DNA of 64,000 nucleotides from an uncultured Acidobacteriota bacterium (GTDB lineage Bacteria; Acidobacteriota; Blastocatellia; Pyrinomonadales; Pyrinomonadaceae). Location: the NCBI GenBank assembly GCA_963789185.1, contig CAWBJU010000020.1, positions 47,304 through 111,303 of the forward strand. Reading direction: 5' to 3'. Of this stretch, positions 16,344 to 20,808 are shown one piece after another. The notes beneath the pieces were generated by a model. The model worked only from the letters and a program-made list of their open reading frames with translations. It did no database searches and had not been told where the DNA came from. Position 1 is the stretch's first letter, and the number at the start of each line of letters is the position of its first letter. Both the position numbers and the translations under genes were made by a program.

Positions 16344-18131
16344 TCAAGTCTTCCGGCGCGTGAGGCTGGCGGAGACGGCACAGAGCTCGGTGAGTTCTAC
16401 AGGTTTGGGGACGTGCATGTCGTAGCCCGCGCGCAGGGCGTGGAGGCGGTCTTCGACCCGGGTGTAGGCCGTTAAGGCTATGGCTGCGACGCGCCGTCCC
16501 TCTTCGGTTTGAAGAGTGCGCACCTGCCGAATCAGATCATACCCGTCTACGTTGGGCATTCCGATATCGCTGATCAAAATGTCCGGTACTTCGTTGGCAA
16601 GTGCCTTGAGAGCTTCGGCGGCCGATTCGGCAACGCGCACAGTGGCGCCACAGTATTCGAGACCCTGCCGCAACAACTCGCGTGTGTCAGGCTCGTCGTC
16701 GACAATCAGGATGATTAGACCATCAAGTCGATCGGTACTCTCGTTCGTCGGCAACAAGTCTCTCGCACCCGGATGCACGCGACCGCCTGTGGCGTCGACC
16801 TGGTAAATCGGACTGATCGGCAACTGCACGGTAAACGTCGCGCCTTCTCCCGGGCCCGCACTTGACGCCTGGACAGTTCCGCCATGGAGTTCGACCAGAT
16901 GACGCACAATAGCCAGTCCGAGTCCCATGCCGCCATGCTGGCGACTCGTCTTCTGATCTGCCTGACGAAAGCGATCGAAAACATGCGGCAGAAAATCAGG
17001 CGAGATCCCCTGCCCGGTATCACTCACTACGATATCGAGATGTGAATTGACGCGCTCCGAACGGATCTGAACTCGCCCGCCGCGCGGCGTGAATTTGATC
17101 GCGTTTGAAAGCAGGTTCCAGACTACTTGCTGAAGCCGCACGGGATCACCGGGGATCGAAACCGCGCCAGTGTCCATCACCTTTTGCACGCGAACGCCTT
17201 TCGCCTCGGCGGCTGGTCTAACAGCTTCCACCGCGGCGTCGATGAACCCATTGGGATCGGAGGGACGCACGTCCATTCGCAACTTGCCCGTGATGATGCG
17301 TGAGACATCGAGCAGGTCGTCGATCAGTTGAGCCTGCGCGCGCGCGTTACGTTCGATCGTGTCGAGGGCTTTTGCATGATCCTCAGCTGACAACTGGCCC
17401 AATCGCAGCATGCGCGTCCAACCGAGAATGGCGCTCAACGGGGTGCGCAGTTCGTGCGAGATGGTGGCGAGAAACTCTTCCTTCAACCGGCTCGACTCTT
17501 CCGCCTGATGATAGAGCTTATCCTTTTCAACTACCGCTTGTTCAGCTTCGGCGCGCGCCTGTTTCGCTGCTTCATAAGCCGCGGCGAGGGCTTGACGCGC
17601 CTGCCGTTGTTCGGTGATGTCACGTGCGATCTTGGAAGCGCCGACGATTTGACCGTTCGGTCCTTTGATCGGTGAAACCGTCAACGAGATATCAATCAGT
17701 CTCCCATTTTTGGTGACCCGGATTGTTTCGTAGTGCTCAATGCGATCACCGGCGCGGAGTCGCGCGAGGATTGCGGGTTCTTCGTCGACGTGCTCGGGCG
17801 GGATCAGCATCGTCACCGGTTTGCCGATTGCCTCCTCCGCGGTGTAGCCGAAGATACGCTGAGCGCCGTGGTTCCAACTCGTAATGATGCCGTCGAGCGT
17901 TTTACTGATAATCGCGTCGTCAGCCGACTCGATGACCGCAGCCAGCCAGTAAGGCGCCAGCTCAGGGCTCTTTAAATCTGCAACGTGATCCGTCTTGAAT
18001 GCGTTGTGCGAGCCGCATCGCTGGAGCTTTACCGGGCATAACCAATTGATCTCTGCGCTGACTTCTCGGAGGAGAGTTTTACCAGGGGGGACAAACAGGG
18101 GTAGGCGGATTATAGCAGGGCCGGCGCACAT
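16344..18131 (-). CDS. Hybrid sensor histidine kinase/response regulator (PAS-HisKA-HATPase-REC)
   Basis: PAS IESADDAIISKTLDGIITSWN, H-box ISHELRTPLSAILGW, G-box GMGLGLAIVRHLVELHGG, receiver ILIVDDEPDTRELL...DILISDIGMPNVDG. It starts 37 nt after the ATP-grasp gene. Confidence 0.85.
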   Translation of the reverse strand: MCAGPAIIRLPLFVPPGKTLLREVSAEINWLCPVKLQRCGSHNAFKTDHVADLKSPELAPYWLAAVIESADDAIISKTLDGIITSWNHGAQRIFGYTAEEAIGKPVTMLIPPEHVDEEPAILARLRAGDRIEHYETIRVTKNGRLIDISLTVSPIKGPNGQIVGASKIARDITEQRQARQALAAAYEAAKQARAEAEQAVVEKDKLYHQAEESSRLKEEFLATISHELRTPLSAILGWTRMLRLGQLSAEDHAKALDTIERNARAQAQLIDDLLDVSRIITGKLRMDVRPSDPNGFIDAAVEAVRPAAEAKGVRVQKVMDTGAVSIPGDPVRLQQVVWNLLSNAIKFTPRGGRVQIRSERVNSHLDIVVSDTGQGISPDFLPHVFDRFRQADQKTSRQHGGMGLGLAIVRHLVELHGGTVQASSAGPGEGATFTVQLPISPIYQVDATGGRVHPGARDLLPTNESTDRLDGLIILIVDDEPDTRELLRQGLEYCGATVRVAESAAEALKALANEVPDILISDIGMPNVDGYDLIRQVRTLQTEEGRRVAAIALTAYTRVEDRLHALRAGYDMHVPKPVELTELCAVSASLTRRKT

Positions 18132-18168
18132 TGCCCATCTGTGGCTCCAAGAGAGCGATTTGACACTC

Positions 18169-19092
18169 CTAATTGCCGCTCAAATAATCAGCGACAGCTT
18201 GAGAGATCGGCTGGCCCGTCTGCGATTCGTAGTAGCTGAACGCGGGGCTGGGGTTTACCTCGAAACAGTAGACGTAGTTCTCGGGTGTGATCTTCAGATC
18301 GATACCGGCGAAAGCGAGACCAAGTCCGGCCGATAGCTTCACGCACATCTCTGCCAGGTCGTCAGCTAATTCGACAGGACGGAGATCTGCATGGTCTCCG
18401 CTTTGACGATGGGCGTAACGATAGTCGGTCGCGTCGGTGTTGATTGCGGTTGCGAAAACTTTCTCGCCGACTGTGTGAACACGCACATTCGTCCCTTCGA
18501 CAAAGGCCTGAAACTGAGTTGGGCACCAGCGAATGTTGTCGATGCGCGTCATGTCGTCGTCAGTCAACGTTTGCACGATCGAACGCACGCCGCTGATCGA
18601 TTTGTAAATAACTCGGCCGTGACGAGCGCGAAACGCACGCACCAAATCAGGGTCGTTGGTGATTAAAGTTTCCGGAACTTCGAAGCCGTAGCGCCTGATT
18701 AGCTGCGCCTGGTAAGGCTTGGAAAAGTTTGACCCCATCGGCGCAACGCGATTCACGACGCGTGCGGGACTGATCTCGGCCCAACGAGTCAACGTCTCAA
18801 ACAAGTTGCAGCAAAACTTCAGCTCGGGCGCGTCGGCCGGAGCGTCTTGCAACTCGGGCAGGAAGTGGTAGTCCATCAACCGCGTGAAAACGCCTGTGAA
18901 CTCGTCGACCGAATAGCTGTCGCCGTTCAGTTGCAGCTTGCCGCTTGGCTTTCCGCCTTGAATGTCCAGCGACATCTTCATGCTGGCAAACTTTCGCTGG
19001 TTCAAGACGACGTAACGCGTGCCATTGCCGTCGAGTGCGTCACGCACGAGGGCCATCGGTGTTTCAGTAGGAATGCCACAAAGGAGAATCAT
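18169..19092 (-). CDS. ATP-grasp ligase, RimK / MvdC-MvdD (peptide-modifying) style
   Basis: C-terminal ATP-grasp signature: RVIYKSISG, FQAFVEGTNVRVHTVGEKVFATAI, DYRY, LAFAGIDLKITPENYVYCFEVNPSPAF (Mg-binding E and N present). From memory it resembles microviridin ligases (MdnB/MdnC) in layout. Confidence 0.8.
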   Translation of the reverse strand: MILLCGIPTETPMALVRDALDGNGTRYVVLNQRKFASMKMSLDIQGGKPSGKLQLNGDSYSVDEFTGVFTRLMDYHFLPELQDAPADAPELKFCCNLFETLTRWAEISPARVVNRVAPMGSNFSKPYQAQLIRRYGFEVPETLITNDPDLVRAFRARHGRVIYKSISGVRSIVQTLTDDDMTRIDNIRWCPTQFQAFVEGTNVRVHTVGEKVFATAINTDATDYRYAHRQSGDHADLRPVELADDLAEMCVKLSAGLGLAFAGIDLKITPENYVYCFEVNPSPAFSYYESQTGQPISQAVADYLSGN

Positions 19093-19844
19093 GAGTTGCT
19101 CCGCTTCCGATTCACATAGAGTTGTCGCGCAAGTTCATTGAGTAGCGCTTCACCGCCAAGACGCAGATCTGGCATTGGCGTCGCGCCGGCGAAGGTCCAT
19201 AAGCGGTGGGACTGGCCCAAGGTCAGTTCGATCCCCAGCAGTCGATTTTGCGCGAGACGCGCGAGCGCTTTGCAGGCATCGGCGATGTGCGGCGGCAGGG
19301 TTGGACCAAACACGTGGTCGCCCAACACGATCGCCATTGTCGTGGGTGTGCCCTCGGGAACAATGCGTCGAAGATGTTTCGTTTCGTCGATGTCGTCGTG
19401 GCTGGATTGACTGTATGTGGCGGTGGGAAGTCCTGACTGCGCGGCCATCCATACCCACTCGGAAACGTGACGCCACGCTCCCGACAAACCCTGCGACTGA
19501 ACGCCGTTGAAGATCGGCGTGGGAAGTGTTTTCAGCCAGCTCATAAACAGCGCCGTGTATTCCTGCTGCGCGTACTCGAAATCGGGCGTGCCCGCGAGAT
19601 GTTGCAATGGAACATGCGTGAGCCGGTTGACGACACCATTCACGTATCGATTGTCGATAACGCGTCCGTCGGCAAGTGTGACATTGAAGTTAGCGCCATC
19701 GACTCCGACTGTGTGTTCCCAACGCGCGCTCGTCGTCAACATTTCAGCCGTGACCAATTCAAACGGTTGAAGTCCACGCGCACGCAAACCGTGGAAAGCC
19801 CAAAGTGCGGACGCATCGTGAGCAGAGCAGATCATTAACCACAT
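19089..19844 (-). CDS. Truncated ATP-grasp paralogue that looks catalytically dead
   Basis: The N-terminal region and C-terminal block (LLGIELTLGQSHRLWTFAGATPMPDL) align with 18169-19092 (FAGIDLKITPENYVYCFEVNPSPAF). The central nucleotide-binding part is missing and the E/N metal ligands are replaced by A/A. AGGAG Shine-Dalgarno present; ATGA overlap with the next gene. Confidence 0.6.
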   Translation of the reverse strand: MWLMICSAHDASALWAFHGLRARGLQPFELVTAEMLTTSARWEHTVGVDGANFNVTLADGRVIDNRYVNGVVNRLTHVPLQHLAGTPDFEYAQQEYTALFMSWLKTLPTPIFNGVQSQGLSGAWRHVSEWVWMAAQSGLPTATYSQSSHDDIDETKHLRRIVPEGTPTTMAIVLGDHVFGPTLPPHIADACKALARLAQNRLLGIELTLGQSHRLWTFAGATPMPDLRLGGEALLNELARQLYVNRKRSNS

Positions 19845-20628: not shown

Positions 20629-20687
20629 GAAACTAACTCCTTGTGTGGGTGAAGTGAGTGGTTGTCTGTGTCAGGTGCGATCACTCG

Positions 20688-20702
20688 GCAAGGAATGTGC
20701 CA
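20688..20702 (-). promoter_or_regulatory. Sigma-54 (-24/-12) promoter of the K/E-repeat / ATP-grasp unit
   Basis: The minus strand reads TGGCAC-ATTCC-TTGC (preceded by C, which is outside this span). This matches the TGGCAC-N5-TTGC consensus exactly. It lies about 60 nt upstream of the ATG at 20628. Confidence 0.7.
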
Positions 20703-20808
20703 GCACAAAAGGCGCAGACGGGTGGGGTTTTCTGACTGTTTTATGACTGAGGGACGAACAGAACTGTAGACAGCCGGAGACACTCGCTATCCGATCGGTT
20801 TCAGTCTT

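Follow-up and report, generated by a model that had tools for sequence, protein, structure and literature searches.

A graspetide-type ATP-grasp, a pseudo-ATP-grasp partner and a Lys/Glu-rich candidate substrate: a predicted protein-modification cassette in an uncultured Acidobacteriota bacterium

Described ATP-grasp systems and the three-gene cassette

The closest described counterparts of the locus reported here are the graspetide systems, such as those of microviridin (MdnA/MdnB/MdnC), plesiocin (PsnA2/PsnB) and fuscimiditide (ThfA/ThfB), in which an ATP-grasp enzyme gene lies beside a gene for a ribosomally made substrate rich in Lys donors and Glu/Asp acceptors. A comparable arrangement, with a candidate substrate, is found in contig CAWBJU010000020.1 of an uncultured Acidobacteriota bacterium (family Pyrinomonadaceae), of which a stretch of 64,000 nucleotides (nt) was analysed (the window, to which all coordinates below refer). 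The genes concerned, all on the minus strand, specify a Lys/Glu-rich (K/E) repeat protein of 236 amino acids (aa), a 251-aa pseudo-ATP-grasp protein and a 307-aa ATP-grasp protein. We propose that they form a graspetide-type protein-modification system that depends on a pseudoenzyme and uses a C-terminal recognition sequence, a reading that we judge to be about evenly poised between right and wrong, every catalytic step in it being predicted. The features of the cassette are:

19918–20628, minus strand: candidate substrate gene, open reading frame (ORF) of 236 aa
19966–20073 (residues 186–221), minus strand: putative C-terminal recognition module, EDRIRELEDAVERLT-HFI-GVDL-RPDL-TT-GAL-KG-E-P-D, with a helix of predicted local distance difference test score (pLDDT) 79–86 in the AlphaFold2 (AF2) model
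19857–19895, minus strand: hairpin between the substrate and enzyme genes, 13-bp perfect core, minimum free energy −27.3 kcal/mol, z = −3.97 against shuffled sequences
19089–19844, minus strand: pseudo-ATP-grasp gene, ORF of 251 aa
18169–19092, minus strand: predicted active ATP-grasp gene, ORF of 307 aa, sharing an ATGA overlap with the 251-aa gene at 19089–19092

A previous interpretation of this DNA from its letters alone (the sequence-only reading) had reported four co-directional minus-strand genes, the fourth being that of a hybrid kinase, and its coordinates, the ATGA overlap and a 37-nt gap before the kinase gene were all reproduced from the ORFs. It had also called for a survey of other genomes, asking whether a K/E-repeat ORF with a TGGCAC-N5-TTGC promoter accompanies the enzyme pair. 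A genome scan using one genome per species returned 119 relatives, from which 80 loci were kept, with ATP-grasp identities of 51–98%. These loci span more than 12 phyla, including Acidobacteriota (several orders), Chloroflexota, Actinomycetota, Gemmatimonadota, Nitrospirota and Nitrospinota, with further examples in the Alpha-, Beta- and Gammaproteobacteria, Verrucomicrobiota, Bacteroidota, Desulfobacterota, WOR-3 and Margulisbacteria. The pseudo-ATP-grasp gene is directly upstream of the ATP-grasp gene in 80 of 80 loci; the two are usually translationally coupled, and at least 39 loci retain their ATGA overlap. The repeat ORF proved to be co-conserved with the pair across phyla, a K/E tract and module lying upstream in the 76 readable loci, in every one of which the upstream gene ends in the same module, a helix followed by HFI-x4-RPDL. 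The promoter, on the other hand, was present in five loci only. No conserved neighbour beyond the three genes was found across the 80 loci. The conserved unit is thus a three-gene cassette of substrate, pseudo-ATP-grasp and ATP-grasp, to which a role in protein modification is assigned by prediction.

The likeness to graspetide systems extends to the sequence and fold of the ATP-grasp, which also retains their DxR motif and the ligands for ATP and Mg. The repeated candidate cores are reminiscent of the multi-core precursors of plesiocin and thuringinin, and the RPDL of the module recalls the RPFG recognition element of ThfA. Unlike in those systems, the recognition module is C-terminal, the substrates are 170–1834 aa long and some carry enzyme domains, a dead enzyme paralogue is obligatorily linked, and no conserved exporter, leader peptidase or tailoring enzyme was detected near the cassette across the 80 loci. 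The leaders of characterised graspetides are, to our knowledge, N-terminal. A graspetide leader relocated to the C-terminus has been reported to still direct multi-core modification, the key element being the RPFG tetrapeptide (PMC13003496).

Corallotide (CorA/CorB/CorC/CorD, graspetide group 15; Carter et al. 2026) offers a precedent for a large precursor, a TIGR04187-type enzyme and partner dependence: its 22-kDa precursor carries five KxxxD lactams, the TIGR04187-type synthetase is fully active only with a partner protein, and the modified Lys residues are trypsin-resistant (PMC13097080). The corallotide partner is, however, a 2-oxoglutarate (2OG)/Fe(II) oxygenase and not a pseudo-ATP-grasp, the recognition domain is N-terminal where the cassette module is C-terminal, the defined KxxxD motifs sit in sequence that is not K/E-rich, and corallotide itself is confined to Corallococcus. 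No conserved 2OG/Fe(II) oxygenase or beta-lactamase-like gene was seen near the cassette in the 80 loci, and its neighbours in the window are the hybrid kinase gene and pilC. The HFI..RPDL motif was not found in the accessible part of the Carter et al. 2026 data, a RODEO survey of >20,000 graspetides (PMC13097080); the repeat-rich groups 34 and 35 of that study (Streptomyces, Nostoc) are different systems. Dependence on a non-catalytic partner is also known from rosaritide (MirB/MirC), whose synthetase shows no activity or is not soluble unless its co-purifying partner protein, which strictly co-occurs with it, is present. MirC is a SurA/PpiC-like chaperone, whereas in the cassette the synthetase is partnered by a degenerate copy of itself.

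The sequence-only reading knew of no described system with this composition, and this requires qualification. The enzyme pair probably corresponds to the 'branch 8' ATP-grasp loci, which typically hold peptidases of several unrelated families alongside a truncated inactive ATP-grasp, and in which no precursor was detected (Makarova et al. 2022, PMC8939145). The match is one of gene content: some cassette loci, the long forms described below, likewise have S8, S1-like or Cys-peptidase-like proteins beside the pseudo/live pair. In that paper the peptidases were regarded as peptide providers, and K/E-rich proteins or a shared module were not reported, whereas here the module-bearing proteins are read as substrates. 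No description of the K/E tract with its HFI..RPDL module, or of these proteins as substrates, was found in the literature searched. A known defence system was considered and rejected, as PADLOC matches were sub-threshold (best E = 4e-5, to the kinase) and there were none for the repeat protein or the ATP-grasp.

The live and dead ATP-grasp proteins

The 307-aa protein matches the Pfam RimK-like ATP-grasp domain (35.7 bits, cut-off 21). Among NCBIfam models it scores highest with TIGR04187 (128.7 bits, 2.6e-37), MvdD (96.1 bits, 2.2e-27) and MvdC (92.8 bits, 2.2e-26), and its PDB matches are, in order, PsnB (1.7e-25), MdnC, MdnB, CdnC, AMdnB and PruB. Residues K164, D265, E278 and N280 have aligned counterparts in both PsnB and MdnC, and none of them varies among 12 family members. 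The sequence CFEVNPSP, previously noted as an ATP-grasp C-terminal signature with intact metal ligands, occupies residues 276–283, and its two ligands, E278 and N280, do not vary within the family. The DxR motif, D223-Y224-R225, aligns with the DFR of PsnB and is likewise invariant in the family alignment; the DFR motif is reported to be critical for graspetide synthetase activity (PMC13097080). The protein belongs to the graspetide-macrocyclase clade and is intact as an ATP-grasp, with catalysis predicted from these residues. Its scores are nonetheless below the cut-offs of the curated graspetide-maturase models (TIGR04187, TIGR04184, TIGR04185 and TIGR04192), at 128.7 vs 350 for TIGR04187 and 96.1 vs 475, 92.8 vs 425 and 18.8 vs 230 for the others, and because all of them fall so far short, the enzyme represents a distinct subfamily without a curated model.

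A small-molecule ligase, the identity named by the sequence-only reading as fatal to its proposal, was rejected on the NCBIfam and PDB scores: graspetide macrocyclases are the best matches and the glutathione synthase models reach only 15–16 bits (3e-3). That reading had likened the layout to the RimK / MvdC-MvdD branch, of which the graspetide side is upheld by the TIGR04187 and PsnB matches and the RimK side is not. RimK and its substrate, ribosomal protein S6, do resemble the cassette in belonging to the same broad superfamily branch, in acting on a whole protein and in the matching Pfam RimK domain. A RimK-like tailing reaction, adding Glu or other amino acids to the C-terminus or side chains of the substrate in +129 Da steps, would be in keeping with these similarities and with the weak matches to RimK family models. 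These matches are, however, weaker than those to graspetide synthetases, both for rimK_fam (55.2 bits, 6.5e-15, cut-off 143.4) and for the S6-Glu ligase model (23.2 bits, cut-off 331), and the PDB match to RimK (4.6e-5) is 20 orders of magnitude weaker than that to PsnB. Moreover, all aligned members of the family have the DxR motif of graspetide synthetases, RimK works without a dead-paralogue partner, and the substrates have no conserved acidic C-terminus, their ends ranging from KKKPK to PRRRRR or coinciding with the motif. A RimK-type alpha-L-glutamate ligase was rejected on the family-level scores and the substrate C-termini, and tailing of this kind appears very improbable.

The 251-aa protein has no sequence match in Pfam, NCBIfam or PDB, and BLASTP detects no similarity between it and the 307-aa protein, so that the homology of the two is visible only to profile–profile and structure comparison. 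With hhalign, a profile of 76 homologues of the 251-aa protein aligned to the ATP-grasp family with a probability of 93.6% (E = 2e-7), residues 8–244 being placed on 8–306 of the ATP-grasp. In this alignment the central ATP-binding segment is deleted, and the positions of metal ligands E278 and N280 are occupied by Ala. The AF2 model is of good quality (pLDDT 88, predicted template modelling score (pTM) 0.85), and a Foldseek search with it returned PruB, MdnC, MdnB, AMdnB, CdnC and PsnB (E 1e-10 to 1e-7, template modelling (TM) score ~0.7), with PruB, MdnC, MdnB and PsnB as top matches at ~1e-10. The dead ATP-grasp paralogue of the sequence-only reading is therefore corroborated: alignment and model show the protein to be a conserved, catalytically dead ATP-grasp paralogue. 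The family has its own invariant motif, GLxGxWRHxSEW, and comprises 2206 representative clusters (E <= 1e-3; ~2,200 at 50% identity), which together argue for a conserved pseudoenzyme and not a decaying gene.

The candidate substrate and its predicted modification

The 236-aa protein consists of a K/E-rich repeat tract (approximately residues 1–172), a Gly/Pro spacer and the conserved C-terminal module. Its description in the sequence-only reading was accurate for the K/E repeats, as translation gives EKIKPEKE(L/F) four times, but the conserved module, and the protease fusions found in other phyla, had been missed. K, E and D account for 52.6% of the protein, and the N-terminal part is 25% Lys and 25% Glu. 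Tandem Repeats Finder detected no DNA array in the gene, so that the repeats exist at the protein level only. Neither Pfam nor NCBIfam has a model that matches it. Confidence in the AF2 model is low over most of the length (pLDDT 58.9), which is usual for low-complexity sequence, the exceptions being helices at residues 33–71 and 185–203. A search of a 5.8-billion-protein index with the C-terminal 71 residues returned five short close relatives only; the fused domains described below were mapped from the 76 locus-derived substrates and not from this search.

The module has the consensus E-x-R-L-x-x-L-E-x-A-V-x-Q-L, forming an amphipathic helix, followed by HFI-x4-RPDL-x2-GAL-x2-E-x-D. The HFI-x4-RP spacing is constant in 77 of 77 sequences, and conservation of the following motif residues is high (R and P, 100%; D, 94%; L, 95%; G, 87%; A, 91%; L, 99%; E, 99%; D, 83%). 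Beyond the motif the tail varies between the extremes given above, and it is absent in L038, L064 and L071. No Ser, Thr or Lys is conserved within the motif and some proteins stop directly after it, which leaves the lysines of the tract as the universal nucleophiles. Two further patterns were observed near the module. Partial copies of the helix (E-x-R-L-x-x-L-E-x-A), without HFI..RPDL, occur between successive K/E tracts in L020, L024, L036, L046 and L050, which hints at a modular tract-plus-helix repeat. Many long forms across phyla (L015, L016, L017, L024, L035, L039, L058, L059, L062, L065 and L066) share a second tail after the motif, L-S-Q-x-L-x-K-x-A-x-D-A-K-x-x-K-D-x-K-D-x-E-K, which short forms like the window protein lack.

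A K/E/D-rich tract of 43–314 residues ends 15–43 residues before HFI in 73 of 73 complete proteins; the three upstream sequences without a tract are ORF fragments of 48–58 aa. The tracts contain 26% K, 22% E, 6% D and 1.7% R, and vary in sequence and length even between close relatives. Certain regularities are nonetheless shared. Lys is never found beside Lys in most tracts (median K-K adjacency 0), the sequence has a periodicity of three (K-acid-hydrophobic), and pairs of the type K(i)-to-E/D(i+4) are enriched 1.63-fold, compared with 0.93 for the reverse order, E/D(i)-to-K(i+4). The ratio K/(K+R) is 0.94 in the tracts (0.77–1.0 even in genomes of >= 65% GC) but 0.18 in the two enzymes encoded beside them, a contrast that points to selection for Lys itself and not for positive charge.

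Short forms of the candidate substrate (170–360 aa), to which the window protein belongs, consist of tract and module alone, while long forms (450–1834 aa) carry the same tract and module behind other domains. Those above the Pfam threshold are S8 subtilases, with the catalytic triad visible, and IPT/TIG repeats; NAL1-like or S1-like serine protease domains gave sub-threshold Pfam matches, and a Cys-peptidase-like domain without Pfam match was read by eye. No signal peptide could be recognised in any of these long forms. The occurrence of the module on proteases and other domains in other phyla suggests that whole proteins, and not only short peptides, are modified. By a hydropathy check, 72 of 74 substrates have no signal peptide or membrane helix, which leaves the classical reading as a secreted RiPP (ribosomally synthesised and post-translationally modified peptide) unsupported. 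In L017, from a Nitrospira metagenome-assembled genome, two tandem plus-strand genes at 4446 and 6004 each end in the helix-HFI-x4-RPDL module, suggesting that a single pair of enzymes can have two or more substrates.

The long forms also bear on the proposal made by Makarova et al. 2022 for loci with a truncated ATP-grasp, diverse peptidases and no predictable precursor (PMC8939145). According to this, the adjacent proteins are not substrates; the peptidases cut peptides from other cellular proteins for the ATP-grasp, and the K/E protein would be a passenger or regulator. Most loci, including that of the window, have no peptidase and only the K/E protein, however, and where peptidases are present they bear the same K/E tract and C-terminal motif, so that the module is what is shared, not proteolysis. 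The hairpin and the tight linkage of the K/E gene with the enzyme genes are also at odds with a passenger, and we attach very little credence to this explanation. That the ATP-grasp pair acts on the K/E-repeat protein is, by contrast, strongly supported by their co-conservation.

The sequence-only reading had placed a perfect 13-bp hairpin in the 73-nt gap after the substrate gene, and folding confirmed its core. Hairpins of unrelated sequence are found at the same place, with z < −2 against mononucleotide shuffles, in 41 of 56 testable loci, a recurrence that fits a substrate made in excess over the enzymes. The hairpin probably attenuates or stabilises the transcript and so sets the ratio of substrate to enzyme. 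Within 19849–19901 (minus strand) its extended stem stops directly at the AGGAG ribosome-binding site of the 251-aa gene (19849–19853), so that the hairpin might in addition restrain the start of translation of the enzyme genes.

In the mechanism that we favour, the live and dead ATP-grasp proteins would form a hetero-complex that docks on the C-terminal module (helix and HFI-x4-RPDL-x2-GAL-x2-E-x-D), which would serve it as a natural recognition sequence of the 'follower' type. With ATP, the active subunit would acyl-phosphorylate Glu/Asp side chains, which would then be joined to Lys epsilon-amines of the neighbouring K/E tract to give many isopeptide (macrolactam) links, most likely as small rings of the K(i)-to-E/D(i+4) type. 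A disordered polyampholyte tract would in this way become a stapled segment resisting cleavage at Lys, with the hairpin keeping the substrate above the enzyme level. On present comparisons the system probably installs Lys-Glu/Asp isopeptide links. The wider generalisation, that such cassettes represent a widespread natural protein-stapling system, in which a live/dead heterocomplex guided by a follower tag turns polyampholyte tracts, free or fused, into arrays of isopeptide rings, is put forward tentatively, as possible but doubtful.

Several observations weigh against stapling of the tract. The ATP-grasp scores far under the curated graspetide cut-offs (128.7 vs 350), the K/E tracts lack the sequence conservation that is typical of graspetide cores, and the K(i)-to-E/D(i+4) enrichment results in part from the period-3 pattern, for which a structural or electrostatic role could be responsible. 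The substrates have no signal peptide and no conserved exporter or leader peptidase is encoded nearby, unlike in most RiPP clusters. Lastly, the near-invariant Glu (99%) and Asp (94% and 83%) of the motif look like core acceptors, so that the motif itself could be the reaction site. This last possibility is the main rival: the near-invariant Glu (E219) or an Asp would be joined to a single partner, whether a Lys elsewhere, another protein or a small amine, and the tract would do no more than separate a cargo domain from the tag, as a flexible or rod-like spacer. Invariant acceptors are normal in graspetide cores, the spacing in the motif is constant, and the module is indeed tag-like behind unrelated globular domains. 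A pure spacer, however, would need no bias of Lys over Arg and would not be expected to recur throughout the family at a set distance from HFI, the short forms have nothing but tract and motif, and a conserved Ser, Thr or Lys is lacking in and after the motif, where several proteins stop. On balance we consider modification at the motif unlikely.

Less likely again is intermolecular linkage, in which the K/E tracts of separate molecules would be tied together as oligomers or as a network; the product might be a cross-linked matrix holding the fused proteases in place, or a protective, desiccation-tolerant material. The tracts are long polyampholytes rich in Lys and Glu, the hosts are mostly soil taxa, corallotide aggregates and has been likened to collagen, and ThfB is able to make cross-linked protein dimers in cells (PMC13003496). 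Against this, in all characterised graspetide synthetases a single bound recognition sequence guides the formation of rings within one molecule, and no conserved assembly, export or structural genes were found near the cassette in the 80 loci, which makes a network improbable.

Under the favoured reading, that of isopeptide stapling within the tract, the new elements are the follower module, the pseudoenzyme partner and protein-sized substrates in a graspetide-type system, the chemistry being predicted. The cassette provides a concrete candidate substrate for a large orphan clade of graspetide-type ATP-grasps, whose partner family (~2,200 clusters at 50% identity, in more than 12 phyla) has no Pfam or NCBIfam model. 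If correct, it would give graspetide biosynthesis its first natural recognition sequence at the C-terminus (a 'follower'), and the first pseudoenzyme-paralogue partner of a graspetide synthetase. Graspetide chemistry would then be used on full-size proteins, proteases included, and not on secreted peptides, as a post-translational route to rigid, protease-resistant protein segments. The module, at ~40 residues, would be a portable tag directing multiple Lys-Glu staples and useful in protein engineering.

Local regulation and neighbouring genes

In the window the cassette lies among type IV pilus genes and is accompanied by the following regulatory features:

20637–20642, minus strand: AAGGAG ribosome-binding site of the substrate gene, read from the sequence and invariant in relatives
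20688–20702, minus strand: sigma-54-type promoter TGGCAC-ATTCC-TTGC, 59 nt before the ATG, the sole exact match in the 64-kb window
20760–20795, minus strand: conserved upstream block, candidate enhancer (upstream activating sequence, UAS), GCGAGTGT...GT..ACA invariant in 5 related loci, 60–100 nt upstream of the −24 element
20819–20848, minus strand: intrinsic terminator after pilC, 13-bp stem (7 G-C pairs), 4-nt loop and T-run
16344–18131, minus strand: hybrid sensor kinase gene, ORF of 595 aa, 37-nt gap after the ATP-grasp gene
8283–9797: gene of a PilR-like REC-Sigma54_activat-HTH_8 protein, identified by domain match

The pilC terminator is the upstream boundary of the cassette unit, and a similar hairpin aligns at its position in relatives. 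The sequence-only reading had recognised this terminator but set it at 20809–20846; its AAGGAG site ahead of the repeat gene, and the domain order PAS-HisKA-HATPase_c-REC of the 595-aa protein, were as described. The sigma-54 promoter that it assigned to the cassette also stands. When one mismatch is allowed the pattern occurs four times in the window against 4.55 expected, and so is not beyond chance by itself. The −24 and −12 elements are, however, invariant in five relatives (L001, L002, L003, L005 and L006), although the flanks differ and the spacer varies in L005. The −24/−12 spacing, the position, this conservation and an enhancer-binding protein encoded in the window are all as expected of a sigma-54 promoter, the activity of which is predicted. 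The block at 20760–20795 is a candidate UAS for it, and PilR a candidate activator; both roles are suggested by sequence and position.

The promoter was not found in the remaining loci scanned. A kinase orthologue (81–91% identity) directly follows the ATP-grasp gene only in six close Pyrinomonadaceae loci (L001, L002, L004, L006, L007 and L008), and pilC adjoins the cassette in eight loci only. As they are confined to close Pyrinomonadaceae relatives, the kinase, the sigma-54 promoter and the pilus position are local additions and were rejected as parts of the system. The kinase can thus no longer be counted as a member, as had been proposed, nor do lineage-specific features of this kind say anything general about a surface or motility role. 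In the window genome the cassette would simply have gained a sigma-54 promoter and a hybrid kinase between pilBTC and pilSR-pilA, as local regulation.

The upstream neighbourhood has the order pilB-(342 aa)-pilT-pilC, the 342-aa Ala/Pro-rich ORF (23361–24389, minus strand) having an N-terminal hydrophobic segment. Downstream are a 157-aa gene, a PadR gene, a permease gene, genes of a PilS-like kinase and the PilR-like sigma-54 activator, and two pilin genes. The 157-aa ORF (15461–15934, minus strand), directly downstream of the kinase gene, has no Pfam or NCBIfam match. The permease, identified by eye, is large (921 aa) and duplicated. The type IV pilin genes, at 7488–7991 (minus strand; N-terminus FSLIELL) and then 6852–7376 (minus strand), complete a classical pilS-pilR-pilA arrangement, and a second sigma-54-like promoter, TGGCACACCGGTTGT, with one mismatch (8107–8121, minus strand), lies just downstream of the PilR-like gene and ~115 nt upstream of the pilin gene.

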